The notes below the pieces were generated by a model that ran no database searches, was not told the DNA's origin, and worked only from the letters and a program-made list of their open reading frames with translations. This document shows positions 9,420-56,578 of a stretch of DNA of 64,000 bases, piece after piece. The position numbers and the translations under genes were made by a program. Every line of letters starts with the position of its first letter. Position 1 is the first letter of the stretch. Source of the DNA: an uncultured bacterium (lineage in GTDB: Bacteria > Patescibacteriota > Minisyncoccia > Phycocordibacterales > Phycocordibacteraceae); contig CAWKPH010000001.1 in NCBI GenBank assembly GCA_963851445.1, positions 159,943-223,942 on the forward strand, written 5' to 3'.

Positions 9420-9510
9420 GGAGACGTGGCTGAGTGGTCGAAAGTACCTCACTGCTAACGAGGCAGGGGTTAATAGCCCCTCGAGGGTTCGAATCCCTCC
9501 GTCTCCGCCA
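9420..9510 (+). tRNA. tRNA-Ser (anticodon GCU), class II with long variable arm, CCA encoded
   Basis: Acceptor GGAGACG/CGTCTCC, anticodon loop CUGCUAA, long variable arm, T-arm GAGGGTTCGAATCCCTC, 3' GCCA. Confidence 0.85.
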
Positions 9511-22115: not shown

Positions 22116-22189
22116 CCATCCTTAGCTCAGTTGGTTAGAGCATCGAGCTTATACCTCGAGGGTCCCTGGTTCGAGTCCAGGAGGATGGA
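22116..22189 (+). tRNA. tRNA with anticodon UAU (would read AUA; tRNA-Ile-like), no encoded CCA
   Basis: Acceptor CCATCCT/AGGATGG, D-arm GCTCAGTTGGTTAGAGC, anticodon stem TCGAG/CTCGA with loop CTTATAC, T-arm CCTGGTTCGAGTCCAGG. Confidence 0.7.
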
Positions 22190-25064: not shown

Positions 25065-25476
25065 GGGGGTGACTGGTTTTGACGGTCTGCTCTTTGAAAG
25101 ACGTGCGACGCGATGGAAGCTTGTTGACCATCTAAATCTCGCAAGCACCTAAACTTGCTAACAATTCTGTTGCAAGCGCAAAGCTTTCACCTTTCCAGAT
25201 GAAAGATTTTGCGTTCGCGTACGTAGGAGCTCGAGCGTAAGCTCGCTTCGCCTATGCGACGTTCACTAACCCCGGGTTCCTATAGCCGGATTAGTGGGCG
25301 GAATCTTCTATAGGATCGGTAGTCGTGTGCCCACACGTACTGTCTAAACTACGGGCGTAGATGTACAGGGTTTCGTTTCCGTTTTTACCTGTACATTGAA
25401 ACTTCAATTGAAACTATGCGTCGTAGATTCGCTTTCAAAGCCGGATTCGGACGGGAGTTCAACCTCCCCACCTCCA
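25065..25476 (+). ncRNA. ssrA: tmRNA (SsrA)
   Basis: 5' GGGGGUGACUGGUUUUGACGG and 3' GGACGGGAGUUCAACCUCCCCACCUCCA-A-CCG form the tRNA-Ala-like acceptor with the G3:U70 wobble pair. Tag ORF starts about 92 nt in (GCU AAC ...) and stops with UAA at 25238-25240. Lies directly after smpB. Confidence 0.75.
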
Positions 25477-25483
25477 CCGATAT

Positions 25484-48085: not shown

Positions 48086-48299
48086 AAAAAGTAAAATGCG
48101 CTCAATGGCGCAAGATTTCAGTAGAAATCCTTACCATTGGTCCGGCCGTCAGCCGTACGTAGCGTTTCAGGTACTCTACACTAGTCTTTTAAAGGACGCA
48201 ACGATGAGTCCGACGTTAGCTTAATTTGTATAAAATAGTTCGGCCCTCGCCCAGCCGAAGCTGAGCGAGGAACCGTGTTGATGTTAGCCCATTTAAGGG

Positions 48300-48560
48300 C
48301 AACGATCGCCGCTGGTCAGGTGATGACGACGTCCGCCGCCGCGCCGCTGACCGAGCCGACGGCGCGCATGGCGCCGACCTCCTGGTGATCCGCGACGGTG
48401 AGATGGCCCTTGGCGGCGGCGATGTTCAGGATTTGCCGGGAATGCGGCGACGGGTGAAACCCGTGCCGGGCTGGGTTTTGGTGCATTATCATCCTCCAGA
48501 GGAATGGTCGCCAGCGGGTTGCCGACGACCTTCGTAGTCTATACCCACTTTTTTCCAAAT
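48300..48560. other. 260-bp GC-rich (about 68%) segment without an intact ORF; probable foreign or degraded coding fragment
   Basis: Sharp GC step relative to about 50% flanks. Protein-like fragments appear in two frames (...GADLLVIRDGEMALGGGDVQDLPG... plus strand, ...ILNIAAAKGHLTVADHQEVGAMRAVG... minus strand) but no start-to-stop gene. Confidence 0.4.
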
Positions 48561-49084
48561 CAAGAAGTTATGCACTGTTAGATAAATGGATTCCAACCTA
48601 ATAACAGGTTGTAGATTTTGACTTGAGAATGGGTGCTAAGCTATGAATAGGTCACGCATTGGCTGACCTTGTAATGGAGAGATTGCCATGATGAAGTTTT
48701 TTACCCTTCGGGGAAAGACCGCAGCCTTGGAGACACATTTCATCGAGGGGAGGTGATCCTTCATATCTCGTAAGCCGCACCGGCGCACTTACGCACCCGC
48801 AGGCCCGATGCATCCGCGTCGGGCCTAATGATTTTCATGCTATATTCCTTAAGTCAGCACAGGTCTGACAGAAAGGAATTGTTCCCATGATCGATGGCAT
48901 CACCCGTGAAGCCCCGTGGCCTACGGACGGCCTATGGTCACCGGATGGCGGCTCGGAGATCTGAAGTCTAGGGACCCAGACTCAATTTTCAAGAGCTACC
49001 CATGGCGCTCCAGACTATCGGAACGCCATTTTAATTTAGTGGATGTATTTATTTAAATGAATGACCCTGAGCACGAAGCCTGGG

Positions 49085-49411
49085 TCATTTAGTCCTGAGG
49101 GAACTTGTTTGCAAAGCGTAATGCCTGAGCCCAAGAGACTTTGCTCGCTCTCCTGGAAGCGGTTTTTTAGCAAACCGACCGCCTGTGTGACCATTCGGTT
49201 CACGCCAAACTTCACGCCATTTTCCTGTTCGCTTATCTACCCAACCGTGGCGCCACTTAGCCATGTGTTTACTGATCTTGAGAGGTGTATTGTCCTCTTC
49301 ATAAACATAGCCAGCAAAGAGAGCTCGTTGGGCATTGTGAACTCTATCGACCTCTTCTCTGGCTCCTGGTGGTAGACGCCAACCAGGAGGCTTAGAACCC
49401 GGTGGTCGCAT
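49085..49411 (-). CDS. Orphan small basic protein with a perfect Shine-Dalgarno sequence; weak resemblance to tyrosine-recombinase N-terminal arm-binding domains
   Basis: ATG at 49409-49411, preceded 5 nt upstream by GAGGAGGAG. 108 aa. KRTGKWREVWREPNGHTGGRFAKK segment resembles integrase N-terminal [K/R]RG..W.V.W..P.G motifs. Identification is low-confidence. Confidence 0.45.
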   Translation of the reverse strand: MRPPGSKPPGWRLPPGAREEVDRVHNAQRALFAGYVYEEDNTPLKISKHMAKWRHGWVDKRTGKWREVWREPNGHTGGRFAKKPLPGERAKSLGLRHYALQTSSLRTK

Positions 49412-49465
49412 ATCACTCCTCCTCAAAAGATCAGAGTTTCAGAATACTCTTCAGAGAGAACAAAA

Positions 49466-49495
49466 GCAAAACCGCTCGTGCACGAGCGGTTTTGC
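49466..49495. terminator. Bidirectional terminator (perfect 15-bp palindrome) after rpsJ
   Basis: GCAAAACCGCTCGTG|CACGAGCGGTTTTGC with A-tract and T-tract flanks. Confidence 0.6.
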
Positions 49496-49517
49496 TTTTG
49501 TTGATTTATTCTTCGAG

Positions 49518-49929
49518 CTACACCATCTTCACATCAATCGTAACGCCTGAAGGAAGATTGAGATTCGTGAGAGCCTCAATAACCTTTGCGTGATGGCGAA
49601 AGAATGTCGATGAGACGCTTGTGGATGCGCATTTCGAACTGTTCGCGTGAGTCCTTGTGGATGAATGTCGAACGGTTCACGGTCCAGCGCTTTATCTCAG
49701 TTGGAAGCGGAACGGGACCGACAATTTTCGCATCGAAGCGATTAGCGGTATCCATGATCTGCTTCACCGAGAGATCAAGAATCTTGTGCTCATAGGCGCG
49801 TACGCGAATGCGAAGCTTTGGTTCTGCGCAGGCTCAGCTTCTTTTTTCGAAGCTCTTTTGGCAGGCGTTTAGCGGCTGCTTTTTTACCGCAGCTTTCGCT
49901 ACAGTCTTTTTTGCGGTTGAGTTTGCCAT
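49518..49929 (-). pseudogene. rpsJ: 30S ribosomal protein S10, interrupted by at least three 1-nt indels
   Basis: Lys/Ala-rich N-extension from ATG 49927-49929 (MANSTAKKTVAKAAVKKQPLN...). Core ...AQNQ(K)[39 protein letters not shown]...[11 protein letters not shown] is recovered only by switching frames at an A-run (ccaaag). C-terminal [23 protein letters not shown] is in yet another frame. Confidence 0.75.
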
Positions 49930-49965: not shown

Positions 49966-51170
49966 TTATGCGACGATCTTGGTTACAACACCAGCACCGA
50001 CGGTCTTGCCGCCTTCACGAACTGCGAAGCGAGTGTTGTCCTCAAGTGCGATAGGAGCAATGAGCTTTACCTTGAAGGTAACAGTGTCGCCTGGCATAAC
50101 CATTTCCTTTCCTTCAGGAAGAGTAACTTCGCCGGTCACGTCCGTCGTGCGGATGTAGAACTGAGGCTTGTACCCAGAGAAGAATGGAGTGTGACGACCG
50201 CCTTCGTCCTTAGTGAGAATGTATACTTCAGCTTCGAATTCAGTGTGAGGAGTCACTGAACCAGTCTTTGCAAGAACCTGACCGCGGTGTACATCTTCTT
50301 TCTTCGTACCGCGGAGAAGGATACCAGCGTTGTCGCCAGCCTGACCTTCCTGGAGCTGCTTGTTGAACATTTCGATACCAGTAACAGTCGTCTTTGCGGT
50401 TGGCTGAATACCGACGATTTCGACTTCTTCACCAACCTTGACGATACCGCGCTCGATACGGCCGGTGACAACCGTTCCGCGACCTTCAATAGAGAAGATG
50501 TCTTCGATAGGCATAAGGAATGGCTTGTCGAGTCTCGCGCTCTGGGTTGGGAAGTAGGTGTCCATTGTGTCAACGAGTTCCTTAACCTTTAGAGCCCAAG
50601 GATCGTCAGCTGAAGTTAGCTTCAAGAGCCTTAAGACCTGAGCCGCGGATAACTGGCGTAGCTGCGCCATCAAAGCCCTGCTTGGTGAGAAGTTCACGGA
50701 TTTCCTCTTCAACGAGGTCGACCATGTCCTGGTCATCAACCATGTCTACCTTGTTAAGGAAGACGATGAGTCTTAGGCACACCAACTTGCTTTGCAAGAA
50801 GGATGTGCTCACGAGTCTGAGGCATCGCGCCGTCAGTCGCAGCAACCACGAGCACTGCGCCGTCCATCTGAGCGGCACCAGTAATCATGTTCTTGATGTA
50901 GTCGGCGTGGCCTGGAGCATCAATGTGCGCGTAGTGACGATTCGGCGTCTCGTACTCCGAGTGGTGGAGGGCGATAGTAATACCACGAGCCTTTTCTTCA
51001 GGCGCGTTGTCGATATTATCGACCTTCTCGGCGCGGGCCTTGTAGCCAGCATCCTTGTTGAGATTGAGGACGTTGAGGATAGCAGCGGTGAGCGTGGTCT
51101 TGCCATGGTCAACGTGACCGATGGTGCCTACGTTCATGTGCGGCTTGCTGCGATCGAATGCTTCTGCCAT
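49966..51170 (-). pseudogene. tuf: Elongation factor Tu, split over three reading frames (at least two frameshifts)
   Basis: G-domain [27 protein letters not shown] (50754-51170). Middle ...[27 protein letters not shown]... in a second frame (50606-50878). Domains II-III ...[27 protein letters not shown]... in a third (49966-50739). Confidence 0.85.
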
Positions 51171-51336
51171 ACGTTTGTAAAGTTACAATAAAAGTTACTA
51201 ATTCGGAGTATTTCCCCGCGAGACGCTATCTCCTACCCCTGTATTGCTACAGATAGCAAAGAAACGCCGTGACACGCGTTGTAGTAAAAATACACGGCCG
51301 TTCGCCAAAGGTCAAGCATTTTGTTGCTCCAACGGG

Positions 51337-52740
51337 CTAAGGATGAGTGTGACCTCCCCCCGCTTGTTGAGCACCACCTCTGGCAGAGGCTCTCTTGGGA
51401 GCAGTTGTGCCTCCTCCACCTCCCTTGAATACCGGTTTACCACCGTTGAATATTGAAAGAAGGTCATTTGCTATTGATTTGCCACCTTCCCAGTTATTTC
51501 TCGAAAGCGCTCTAAAAAGTTCCCACGCCATAAAATCCAGAAAACCAACCCCAAGGAAATTGACGGCCGTCATTGAAAAACCAGCACTTACTCCATAGAA
51601 TTGCGCCGCTGATGTCACTACTGGTGCCACCCCTAACACTTGCTCAAGACCGGCGAGTCCTATGAGCGTCAACCCCACGCCACCTATCGCTAAGCCCCCG
51701 ACACCAAGGTTTCCAGCTATCCTTTGTCCTAAGGTTTTTTCTTTACGCTCCTTGCCACTTTTCTTTGCTTTCTCTTTTGAGTCACCCCCGGTAGTTTCTT
51801 TTTTCACTGCATTTTCTTCTTCCTTATTTTTCTCAGCATTTTTTTCAGCTTCCTTAGACTCGTTCCCATTCTTAACTTTCTCAAGATTTGCGTGTAGCTC
51901 CGCATAGCGTGCCGCTATTTCGGGCTTCATCTGCTCGGAGTGAATTTCATTGACTCGCACACTACGCAGAGCTTCTTGACGACTCATTTCTTCTTTAAGT
52001 GTCTCGTGCTTGTCCTTATAGGCAGCAGCTTTCTCTGGATGGGTTTTCGCGAAGGCGCCCCATTGCTCTTCCTGAACCTTCACGCGTTCCTCGTTACTTT
52101 TCGCTTCCCCTGCAAGTCGGACGTCGCGTTCTATGACTCCCTTAAGCACAGGATCTTTATCAGGATTGCTACGTATGCGCGTTCGCTCGGGGTCAGGAGG
52201 TACGAGGCCTCTGGCTTTCATTGTGTTCCACTCCTCCGCAGGGCCCTTTTTCTTTTCCTCTCTTCCAACTGGATAATTATTACGAACACGCGGGGGACTC
52301 CATGAACCGATGAGCTGTGGCTCGCCCCTGAGATCTTCAAGGTGCATCACCTTCTCTTCTGGTTTCTTCGCTTCTTCTACTACAGGCGGTGTAACGACCT
52401 CGGCATGTAAATTTTTAGCTATTGCTGAACTCTTTGCTCGTTGTGCTGCCATACTGTCTTTCATTTCCTGATACATATTTTCATACGCATGGGCTTTTTC
52501 AGGGTACGCTTTTATAAAAGCATCTGTCTGCGTCTTTATTTGCGCATCAGTTGCAAACGCGAAAGAATTTATCACCGCTCGTATGATCGGATCGTCTTCG
52601 GCATAGTAGGGGTGATCCATGTACGTCTTCGTTCTTTCAGGATCTCTTTCAATTCCATACTCATCTCTTTTTTTTCTATTCCAATCTTCTGCTGGAGTGG
52701 GCGATACTGATTCGATTATGCGTGGAGGTTTCTCTGACAT
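51337..52740 (-). CDS. Repeat-containing Lys/Glu-rich protein with C-terminal Gly-zipper membrane segment, inserted between tuf and fusA
   Basis: 467 aa. Two ~110-aa internal repeats (..AEDWNRKKRDEYGIERDPERTKTYMDHP..YPEKAHAYENMYQEMKD.. and ..AEEWNTMKARGLVPPDPERTRIRSNP..HPEKAAAYKDKHETLKEEM..). KE-rich linker. GNLGVGGLAIGGVGLTLIGLAGL hydrophobic Gly-rich C-terminal region. Confidence 0.55.
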   Translation of the reverse strand: MSEKPPRIIESVSPTPAEDWNRKKRDEYGIERDPERTKTYMDHPYYAEDDPIIRAVINSFAFATDAQIKTQTDAFIKAYPEKAHAYENMYQEMKDSMAAQRAKSSAIAKNLHAEVVTPPVVEEAKKPEEKVMHLEDLRGEPQLIGSWSPPRVRNNYPVGREEKKKGPAEEWNTMKARGLVPPDPERTRIRSNPDKDPVLKGVIERDVRLAGEAKSNEERVKVQEEQWGAFAKTHPEKAAAYKDKHETLKEEMSRQEALRSVRVNEIHSEQMKPEIAARYAELHANLEKVKNGNESKEAEKNAEKNKEEENAVKKETTGGDSKEKAKKSGKERKEKTLGQRIAGNLGVGGLAIGGVGLTLIGLAGLEQVLGVAPVVTSAAQFYGVSAGFSMTAVNFLGVGFLDFMAWELFRALSRNNWEGGKSIANDLLSIFNGGKPVFKGGGGGTTAPKRASARGGAQQAGGGHTHP

Positions 52741-52815
52741 ACCTCAAGCATACCAGTCAGGATATAGATAGAAAGAAACCCTGGGGAGATTCCAGGGTTT
52801 CTTTCTGAATTTTTG

Positions 52816-53022
52816 TTAGCCCTCACTTTGACCGCGGTCAAAGTACTCATCGGTCCTGGAGGCTAGTTCGTTCAGCTGGTTCGCCACCTGCCGAAGTATT
52901 CCTGAAGTTACATTTGGCCCTTCAAGAGCTTTGAGGATTCCGACCATTTCGGTTCTAGCCATTTGATCTAGATGGCTTTGGCCTTCCAGACCTGAACTCG
53001 CTCTTCGAGCTTCCATTCCCAT
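52816..53022 (-). CDS. Small helical hypothetical protein
   Basis: 68-aa ORF between the fusA terminator and the 467-aa gene. Confidence 0.3.
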   Translation of the reverse strand: MGMEARRASSGLEGQSHLDQMARTEMVGILKALEGPNVTSGILRQVANQLNELASRTDEYFDRGQSEG

Positions 53023-53062: not shown

Positions 53063-53090
53063 AAAAGCGCGCCCTCTAGGGCGCGCTTTT
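53063..53090 (-). terminator. Rho-independent terminator after fusA
   Basis: AAAAGCGCGCC-CTCTA-GGGCGCGCTTTT. Confidence 0.55.
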
Positions 53091-53110: not shown

Positions 53111-55272
<2,162 letters not shown>

Positions 55273-55390: not shown

Positions 55391-55648
55391 TTACTGAGCG
55401 GTTGTTGGCATCGCGCTTCCTGTTGACGGGGTCTGTTGCGAAGCTGCCTGTTGAAGTTCCTGTTGAAGTTGCTGATCATTTGCAACAGAGTTTGACGGAT
55501 GCAAGGCTTCAACAATTCCTACGCCGAGTGTGAGTACTATGTAGAGCGCTACTGATGCACCGAGTAAGAAAATACCGAGTCCAACGGGCGACTTCCAACT
55601 TGCCCATGAGACCATTCCCCCCTTACCGCCCTTTTTGATTTCATCCAT
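55391..55648 (-). CDS. Small membrane protein inserted between rpsG and fusA
   Basis: 85 aa. One TM helix (LGIFLLGASVALYIVLTLGVGIV) and Gln-rich C-terminus. Confidence 0.45.
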   Translation of the reverse strand: MDEIKKGGKGGMVSWASWKSPVGLGIFLLGASVALYIVLTLGVGIVEALHPSNSVANDQQLQQELQQAASQQTPSTGSAMPTTAQ

Positions 55649-55700: not shown

Positions 55701-56165
55701 TTACCACGCGAAGTGTGCGAATGCCTTGTTGGAATCAGCCATGCGGTGCATGTCGTCCTTCTTTTTGATGGCGTCGCCTTCGTTTTTGACGGCAAGGAGA
55801 ATTTCGTTAGCAAGCTTCTCAGCCATTGGCTTACCCTTCTTGTTACGAGCTGCATTAATGAGCCAGCGGTATGCAAGAGAAACGCGACGCTGCTGGGGAA
55901 CTTCTCGGGGAACCTGGTAGTTAGCACCACCTACGCGGCGTGAGCGCACTTCCATTAAAGGAGAGACGTTGCGGATTGCAGTCTCAAAGGTTTCGAGTGG
56001 ATCAAGGTCTGCCTTCTTGATGATCTCAAGTGCATCGTAGACGACGGTGCGAGCAACATCCTTCTTTCCATCCCACATAACAGTATTTATAAAACGAGAG
56101 ATAGCCTCTGATTGATAGACGAGGTCAGGACGGCGAACAGGTTTGTTTTTGATTGGACGACGCAT
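55701..56165 (-). CDS. rpsG: 30S ribosomal protein S7
   Basis: MRRPIKNKPVRRPDLVYQSE... Confidence 0.9.
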   Translation of the reverse strand: MRRPIKNKPVRRPDLVYQSEAISRFINTVMWDGKKDVARTVVYDALEIIKKADLDPLETFETAIRNVSPLMEVRSRRVGGANYQVPREVPQQRRVSLAYRWLINAARNKKGKPMAEKLANEILLAVKNEGDAIKKKDDMHRMADSNKAFAHFAW

Positions 56166-56170
56166 GGGGT

Positions 56171-56578
56171 TTATTTAGGTTTCTTGGCTCCGTACTTCGA
56201 GCGGCCACGGCGACGCTTGTCGATACCTGCGGTATCGAGGCGACCACGAACGATTGTGTACTGAACACCAATGTCCTTCACACGACCACCGCGAAGCATA
56301 ACAACGGAGTGTTCCTGAAGGTTGTGTCCTTCTCCAGGGATATAGGCAGTTACTTCCATGCCATTGGTTAGACGAACCCTCGCTATCTTACGAATAGCGG
56401 AGTTTGGTTTGCGGGGAGTCTTAGTGGTTACTTTCGTGCAGACGCCACGCTTAAAAGGAGCGGGGTAGAAGGTTGGACGATTCTTGAGGGCATTGAAACC
56501 ACGCCCAAGAGCCACGACCTTGCTTTTGCGTGAATTACTCTTGCGACTCTTCTTTGAAAGTTGGTTTATGGTGGCCAT
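56171..56578 (-). CDS. rpsL: 30S ribosomal protein S12
   Basis: ...[37 protein letters not shown]... Confidence 0.9.

Follow-up and report, generated by a model that had tools for sequence, protein, structure and literature searches.

Introduction

The Escherichia coli proteins YqjD, ElaB, and YgaM (DUF883) are ribosome-associated proteins of ~100 amino acids (aa) that are anchored in the inner membrane by their C-termini. In ZipA-type tethers, a membrane anchor is joined through a long charged or Pro-rich flexible linker to an end that binds a partner. SecE is a small membrane protein whose gene neighbors tuf, the gene of elongation factor Tu (EF-Tu), in many bacteria (tufB–secE–nusG). The subject of this work is an unnamed gene, denoted gene X, that lies between fusA and tuf in a stretch of 64,000 nucleotides (nt) from an uncultured bacterium (contig CAWKPH010000001.1, positions 159,943 to 223,942), referred to as the window. 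The host group is Parcubacteria/Paceibacterota, and the best match of the ribosomal protein L4 among GTDB species representatives is 71%. Patescibacteria have small genomes in which about half of the genes lack an assigned function. The family of gene X is confined to one clade, where it is fixed. Taken as a whole, the observations are best explained, tentatively and with somewhat less than even confidence, by a cytoplasmic tether that is anchored in the membrane by its C-terminus and expressed from its own leaderless transcription unit ahead of tuf.

Each of the described systems resembles the X protein in part. As judged from hydropathy and charge, X would share with YqjD, ElaB, and YgaM a cytoplasmic N-terminal helical part and a C-terminal anchor, and by analogy its translational gene context makes a tether for the ribosome or for a translation factor conceivable. 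X differs from them in that it has no DUF883 match (and no Pfam match at E ≤ 1), in its predicted two-helix hairpin and long Gly/Lys/His tail in place of a single terminal helix, and in its size, 235–640 aa across the family versus ~100 aa. As in ZipA-type tethers, the ends of X are conserved and the linker is of variable length and biased composition; however, the arrangement is reversed, X being anchored by its C-terminus and carrying its peptide motif at the other end, and there is no homology. Glycine-zipper and GxxxG proteins resemble X in their Gly/Ala-rich hydrophobic helices and GxxxG-type motifs, but X matches no Pfam Gly-zipper family and its motif positions are not conserved. DUF2207 proteins have, like X, a poly-Gly tail after a membrane segment, but DUF2207_C matches only one true X member (E 0.0077) together with P0029, at 18.9 bits against a cutoff of 33 bits, and P0029 is a probable false positive. 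SecE shares with X the placement of a membrane-protein gene adjoining the EF-Tu gene. Identity with SecE is rejected, as X lies upstream rather than downstream of tuf, has no SecE match in Pfam or NCBIfam, and is of another size and architecture.

A Genuine Gene among Damaged Neighbors

The open reading frame (ORF) in question is:

51337–52740, minus strand: gene X, a clade-specific predicted membrane protein; ORF of 467 aa with ATG start, stop codon included

Whether this ORF can be trusted is a fair question because essential genes in the same window are broken. Comparison with the orthologues of a related locus, L001, reveals single-base indels, mostly insertions and outside homopolymers, in three genes:

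53111–55272, minus strand: fusA, frameshifted, 20 indels
49966–51170, minus strand: tuf, frameshifted, 4 indels
~49521–49869, minus strand: rpsJ, frameshifted, 1 indel

These indels are probably consensus or assembly errors, arising where conserved genes recruit reads of related strains. Gene X itself has no single-base indel, and the genes of L3, L4, S7, and S12 are intact too.

The damaged neighbors make the local sequence quality suspect and thereby favor the view that X is spurious, either an open frame that arose by chance or an artefact of assembly in a low-quality region. Nevertheless, an independent short-read contig from Logan (L004, 1923 nt) carries the whole X ORF plus 68 nt upstream at 100% identity. 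Identity between this contig and the window is 100% from position 52808 to the start of tuf, and the 16 substitutions that separate the two all fall inside tuf. Homologues are 30–57% identical over both ends of the protein, every length difference among them is in frame, and profile E-values reach 1e-165. On these grounds a spurious ORF is ruled out, its probability being negligible. Gene X is a genuine, conserved protein-coding gene.

A first-pass annotation of the window had described two ORFs here, of 467 and 68 aa, and both are present where it placed them, on the minus strand. It had allowed that the longer one might dissolve after indel correction; the ORF stays whole, as the Logan contig is identical. 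It had also allowed that the homologues might be ordinary annotated proteins at the same position in relatives. They do occupy the same position, but all are unnamed or called “hypothetical protein”. The exact 467-aa protein is itself already on record at NCBI and ENA, without a name.

The Protein and Its Family

Relatives of X are few. A word-indexed search of 5.8 billion proteins yields four clusters only, and an exhaustive profile search of 1.84 billion representatives (E ≤ 0.001) yields 33 cluster representatives, of which ~23 have the full architecture. The X protein, its relatives, and the isolated C-terminal modules have nothing above threshold in Pfam, NCBIfam, PHROGs, or PADLOC. Matches below threshold are compositional (Sporozoite_P67, DUF6821, DUF2207_C, and a tape-measure protein at E 0.0028). 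X has no match in the PDB by sequence or by fold; sequence searches there with the module profile, the 23-member profile, and P0019 return only designed helical repeats or charged-linker proteins. Pattern scans of GTDB genomes and IMG/VR with the family alignment find no relatives, nor does tblastn of phage genomes. A pattern scan of JGI metagenomes finds none either, but it is uninformative, having missed even known members derived from JGI. Rfam has no match in the spacer regions, and literature searches turned up nothing relevant on gene X or on leaderless mRNAs of this group. An origin in phages, defense systems, or mobile elements is rejected, given that PHROGs, PADLOC, phage genomes, and IMG/VR hold no relative and that the one tape-measure match is compositional. 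The profile, sequence, and fold searches thus agree with the initial reading that no known family is recognizable in the 467-aa protein. They support regarding the X family, whose members are unannotated and either unnamed or “hypothetical protein”, as new at the level of protein families.

The window protein can be divided into the following parts:

52720–52740, minus strand: N-terminal peptide MSEKPPR, conserved in the family as M-S-(x)-E-x-P-P
52456–52719, minus strand: helical module copy 1 (residues 8–95), a diverged duplicate found by self-alignment; profile domain i-E 1.2e-21
51991–52266, minus strand: helical module copy 2 (residues 159–250), the copy common to relatives in alignments; profile domain i-E 8e-36
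51721–51888, minus strand: Lys/Glu-rich low-complexity linker (residues ~285–340), ending in a basic juxtamembrane stretch
51538–51720, minus strand: Gly/Ala-rich hydrophobic block from hydropathy (residues 341–401, 61 residues)
51340–51537, minus strand: amphipathic segment (DFMAWELFRALSRNNWEGG), then a Gly-rich tail with Lys/Arg/Ala/Pro that ends in GGGHTHP, from the family alignment

The only constant parts of the family are the two ends. The N-terminal M-S-(x)-E-x-P-P peptide (pattern ^MS.?E.{1,2}P) is present in 21 of 23 members. Its Ser2 codon varies by locus between TCA, TCC, and AGT, which belong to two codon families, and this difference between loci argues that the motif is selected as protein and not as an RNA signal. 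The middle region that follows is variable, net acidic, and ~100–500 residues long; across the 23 members, the N-terminal part carries a net charge of −1 to −31. The juxtamembrane stretch is basic or His-rich, often with KKKW..MSP.EK, and in 19/23 members the 20 residues that precede the hydrophobic block have a net positive charge (+6 in the window protein). All 23 members have an uncharged Gly/Ala-rich block of 55–66 residues with a G-x-(G/A)-P turn at mid-block and a Kyte–Doolittle maximum of 1.59–2.21. For window X, the maximum over 19 residues is 1.92, and E366 is the sole charged residue of the block. The C-terminal part consists of an amphipathic segment (L.K.LW.EG..W.KK), a poly-Gly run, and a Lys/Ala/Pro-rich stretch. 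A run of at least four Gly is present in 19/23 members, and a His lies within the last 4 residues in every one of the 23. In family alignments, both termini are common to the members in a single frame.

The hydrophobic block is predicted from hydropathy to form two membrane helices with a short G-x-A/G-P turn between them. The lack of an N-terminal hydrophobic segment rejects a signal-peptide-bearing, secreted protein. The KE-rich linker, hydrophobic block, and Gly-rich tail are as first described, while the “Gly-zipper” label attached to the block is a loose one. In window X, the first segment contains a single strict GxxxG, and a pair of (G/A/S)xxxGxxx(G/S/T) motifs overlap in the second (residues 379–391). 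Motifs of these types lie within the C-terminal 140 residues of 22/23 members, but they show no positional conservation in the family, and many fall in the poly-Gly tail. Pfam Gly-zipper models have no match at E ≤ 10 in ten C-terminal modules or at E ≤ 0.01 in the 23 full-length members.

The middle of the protein is modular. In the subgroup of the window protein, it holds a helical module (DP.VK.V...QQW.AF.K..PEKAAAY) that occurs twice in the window and once in relatives. Copy 2 reads AEEWN..PPDPERT..DPVLKGV..QWGAFAKTHPEKAAAY, and its AlphaFold2 (AF2) model is all-helical with a predicted local distance difference test (pLDDT) score of 76. The two internal repeats recognized at first sight are real, since residues ~2–120 align with ~145–275 at a local score of 145 against 34 ± 5.8 for 300 shuffles, and two profile domains are found. 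In P0019, P0023, and P0025, a region of ~300 residues with a conserved HExxH (HEQQH or HELQH) takes the place of the helical module. This region, for which L010 is the P0019 locus, has no match in Pfam or the PDB and is possibly a metallopeptidase-like domain carried by the same anchor. In many other members, acidic low-complexity sequence alone forms the middle. The helical module, an unclassified domain, is also found in proteins that have no membrane part (P0021, P0022, P0028, and P0031–P0033), often in tandem. P0021 carries it beside a calpain-type cysteine peptidase domain (Peptidase_C2, E 1.3e-8). Its occurrence outside membrane proteins, including a calpain-like protease, fits an interaction module.

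Position and Distribution

The location of gene X is strictly kept. The order fusA–X–tuf is found in the window and at 11/11 cluster representatives looked up (P0002, P0003, P0004, P0005, P0009, P0014, P0015, P0016, P0019, P0024, and P0027), with flanking genes on short contigs confirmed by tblastn; the initially reported placement between fusA and tuf is therefore a property of the relatives as well. Other sequences can be inserted between fusA and X, namely a GH16/beta-helix protein gene in L003, a YafQ-type toxin pair in L011/L012, and a 68-aa ORF (ORF68) in the window. On its other side, X always abuts the tuf promoter, which is 4–75 nt from the X stop codon (12 loci). The protein evolves fast within this fixed setting, with 34–42% identity to the closest relatives versus 66–69% for L4 and ~90% for EF-Tu.

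The family has a narrow distribution. None of 80 further Parcubacteria loci retrieved (the sister L013 and 79 others) carries it. In a neighbor-joining tree of L4, L3, and L2, the five carriers that could be placed (the window, L001–L003, and L011) are monophyletic, and their sister lineage L013 has no X in the 20 kb examined. The 646-nt spacer at L013 6221–6867 contains two terminator-like hairpins and, on the opposite strand, what may be a small ORF for a multi-pass membrane protein; beyond it, tuf has the promoter and leader seen in the carriers.

The spacer between fusA and tuf is an insertion hotspot across Parcubacteria (L013–L092), ranging from 119 to ~7000 bp and holding unrelated genes. 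Occupants elsewhere include beta-propeller-like repeat proteins, short-chain dehydrogenases, an alanine racemase-like gene, and small membrane ORFs. Because the spacer holds unrelated genes in many other Parcubacteria, an insertion between fusA and tuf is not unusual in itself. Like X, these genes occupy a permissive site between two transcription units. They are unrelated to X and vary by genome, whereas X is fixed across its clade and always adjoins the tuf promoter.

Expression Signals

The region from the end of fusA to the start of tuf contains the following signals:

53111–53113, minus strand: fusA stop codon
53063–53090, minus strand: fusA intrinsic terminator hairpin directly 3′ of the stop codon, −23.1 kcal/mol, then UUUU
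52769–52807, minus strand: terminator-like hairpin just upstream of X, 15–18 bp stem, −24.7 kcal/mol, then a T-rich stretch
52747–52755, minus strand: extended −10 element TGGTATGCT, conserved as TGnTAnnnT, ending 6 nt before the X ATG
51287–51315, minus strand: conserved tuf promoter TTGACC–17 nt–TATTTT, beginning 21 nt after the X stop codon
51263–51280, minus strand: short hairpin AACGC..GCGTT with a T-run, at about +1 of the tuf transcript, −5.9 kcal/mol

The fusA terminator reported at 53063–53090 is confirmed by folding. An equivalent of the second hairpin with its T-rich stretch precedes X in 7/8 relatives compared (L001, L002, L003, L005, L007, L008, and L010); the exception is L011, where a toxin gene stands in front of X. 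The TGnTAnnnT element is found before the X ATG at 12/12 loci, at a distance of 6 nt (7 nt in one), while the rest of the spacer is not conserved. A Shine–Dalgarno-like motif is absent from the X start. Such motifs precede only 4/48 ORF starts in the window, and many starts have a TAnnnT −10-like hexamer 5–8 nt upstream, a pattern that suggests widespread leaderless mRNAs in this Parcubacteria lineage. We infer that the X mRNA is leaderless, its first nucleotide being the A of the ATG or one beside it.

Downstream of X, the tuf promoter (TTGACCTTT–17–TAYYTT) is present at 12/12 loci of the clade (TTGACC–17–TAYYTT) and in the sister L013, and a comparable promoter plus hairpin stands ahead of tuf in more distant Parcubacteria. 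The AACGC..GCGTT hairpin is the first terminator-like element downstream of X and also occurs upstream of tuf in the wider Parcubacteria. The hairpins upstream of X, the conserved X −10 element, and the conserved tuf promoter lead us to infer that fusA and tuf are separate transcription units in this group and that X is a third unit between them.

The first-pass annotation had taken X to be part of the str operon and so expressed constitutively at a high level. In such a reading, X would be an extra cistron co-transcribed with fusA and tuf. It lies on the same strand between the two genes, and read-through into tuf is possible, since no strong terminator separates X from tuf and only 21 nt lie between the X stop codon and the tuf −35 element. 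Nevertheless, strong hairpins with T-rich stretches stand between fusA and X in the window and in relatives, X has an extended −10 of its own and tuf a promoter of its own at 12/12 loci, and tuf has its own promoter across the wider Parcubacteria. Codon usage points the same way. The codon adaptation index (CAI), calculated against the small reference set formed by the window's ribosomal-protein and EF-Tu genes, is 0.505 for X (rank 34/39), below the 0.564 ± 0.052 of the 38 other window ORFs and the 0.64–0.83 of the reference genes. An operon cistron is unlikely, and high constitutive expression finds no support in the terminators, the separate predicted promoters, or the below-mean CAI.

The tuf leader itself (51168–51320, minus strand; L001–L013) has a recurrent organization. 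The promoter and the AACGCG hairpin with its T-run are followed ~70 nt later by an invariant CGCGG and then by a second hairpin CCTGTC..GCAGG (missing in the window); TTTACAA ends 3–4 nt upstream of the start codon. The RNAalifold structure has 21 predicted pairs, with compensatory changes at 5, but a weak covariation term; Rfam has no match. The element may be a cis-regulatory leader or a 5′ stabilizer.

Possible Functions of the X Protein

In the proposed explanation, X would be transcribed as its own unit, as a leaderless mRNA, in the permissive spacer between the separate fusA and tuf units. Its transcripts would be terminated where the tuf leader begins, at the short hairpin with its T-run, or else continue into tuf. 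With no signal peptide, the long acidic N-terminal part of the protein would stay in the cytoplasm. A basic stretch would then lead into a Gly/Ala-rich two-helix membrane hairpin, after which the amphipathic helix and the Gly/Lys/His tail would lie back at the cytoplasmic face, giving an N-in/C-in protein with a C-terminal anchor. This topology is proposed because a signal peptide is missing, the N-terminal part is acidic, the block is preceded by a basic flank, and the tail is positive. Anchored in this way, X would present its N-terminal peptide, and in some members the helical module, on a flexible charged spacer, and so recruit a cytoplasmic partner to the membrane. The reading as a tether follows from the pattern of conservation, in which a variable middle separates the only two constant parts, the N-terminal heptapeptide and the C-terminal anchor with its tail.

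Several points weigh against this explanation. A tether is the most likely function to be read from the sequence, yet no homology links X to a function or a partner. The membrane assignment is a prediction from hydropathy, and the full-length AF2 model, made from 4 sequences, is poor, with a pLDDT of 51 that drops to 30–50 in the hydrophobic block. The second hydrophobic segment of window X is also of marginal hydropathy (Kyte–Doolittle ~1.3–1.4). The predicted promoter and leaderless start of X are consensus matches backed by conservation. The absence of X from L013 suggests that the gene is dispensable. Finally, the carriers are closely related (tuf 89–98% identical), so that common descent by itself, with no functional tie to tuf, may account for the conserved fusA–X–tuf order.

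Other functions are conceivable for a protein with these ends. The GxxxG and glycine-zipper-type motifs would suit a channel or pore former of the holin or viroporin kind, with an oligomeric pore formed of packed Gly-rich helices and a regulatory role for the cytoplasmic part, and a weak, sub-threshold holin-family match of one member (E 0.88) and the toxin–antitoxin pair adjoining X in L011/L012 lean in the same direction. Such a pore is improbable, however, when the unconserved motif positions, many of them in the soluble poly-Gly tail, are considered together with the missing relatives in PHROGs, PADLOC, phages, and IMG/VR, and with a large, variable acidic N-terminal part and a strictly conserved chromosomal position that are unlike holins. 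Alternatively, X may be a metal-binding membrane protein, serving in storage or as a chaperone, whose invariant C-terminal His and Gly/His tail would hold the metal with the aid, in many members, of His-rich juxtamembrane stretches. The C-terminal His often stands in GGGHH or DHGGGH, HGHGH-type stretches precede the hydrophobic block in P0014, P0015, P0017, P0018, P0020, P0024, P0025, and P0030, and the HExxH motif of P0019, P0023, and P0025 could be counted with them. Window X and its closest relatives, however, have no His-rich stretch (10 His among 467 residues in window X), no genes for metal transporters or chaperones lie nearby, and no metal-binding family is matched, so that metal binding is just as improbable as a pore.

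A more specific form of the tether would give it the translation machinery as its partner, with the S-x-E-x-P-P peptide on the acidic spacer docking EF-Tu, EF-G, or the ribosome. If true, it would explain why X is fixed against the tuf promoter while the rest of the spacer turns over. The link to EF-Tu or the ribosome is suggested by gene position only, and this version is very improbable, even more so than a pore or a metal-binding protein.

Neighboring Features

On the minus strand, the genes around X are, in order:

56171–56578, minus strand: rpsL
55701–56165, minus strand: rpsG
55391–55648, minus strand: 85-aa membrane ORF
~53111–55272, minus strand: fusA
52816–53022, minus strand: ORF68, of doubtful coding status, between two terminator-like hairpins
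51337–52740, minus strand: gene X
~49966–51170, minus strand: tuf, followed by rpsJ, rplC, and rplD

ORF68 had been listed as a gene for a helical protein, a status that finds no support. Its sole database match is itself (P0034), tblastn finds no match in L001–L003, and nothing in Pfam, NCBIfam, PHROGs, or PADLOC is above threshold. The whole segment of ~300 nt is absent from relatives, the CAI of 0.43 is the lowest measured in the window, and a perfect 20-nt palindrome (..TTTGACCGCGGTCAAA..) lies near the 3′ end at 52825–52844. ORF68 appears to be an unconfirmed orphan ORF within a lineage-specific insert and is unsupported as a gene.

The 85-aa ORF between rpsG and fusA encodes a putative single-pass membrane protein with counterparts of 43–55% identity at the same position in L001–L003. 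Relatives have more small lineage-specific ORFs between rpsG and fusA, rpsJ and rplC, and rplB and rpsS. The gap between rplC and rpsJ in the window (48086–49520, ~1.4 kb) contains no ORF above ~110 aa and has a spike in GC content of 0.61 at 48200–48499. Its sole conserved part is the ~90 nt upstream of rplC (~48093–48190), which have 82–88% nucleotide identity with relatives and may be a leader; Rfam has no significant match in the gap. A tmRNA gene and two tRNA genes at 25065–25479, 22116–22189, and 9420–9507 (Rfam gathering thresholds) are ordinary features.

Implications

As the evidence stands, X adds to the conserved hypothetical proteins and does not amount to a new mechanism. Its family is fixed throughout one clade and combines sharply conserved ends with a middle that can be exchanged, and its gene always keeps its place next to the EF-Tu promoter. 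The spacer between fusA and tuf emerges as a landing site for new genes, which corrects the assumption that genes placed there are expressed like those of a ribosomal operon. The X family thereby offers a concrete target for the study of the lineage-specific membrane biology of these uncultured episymbionts.

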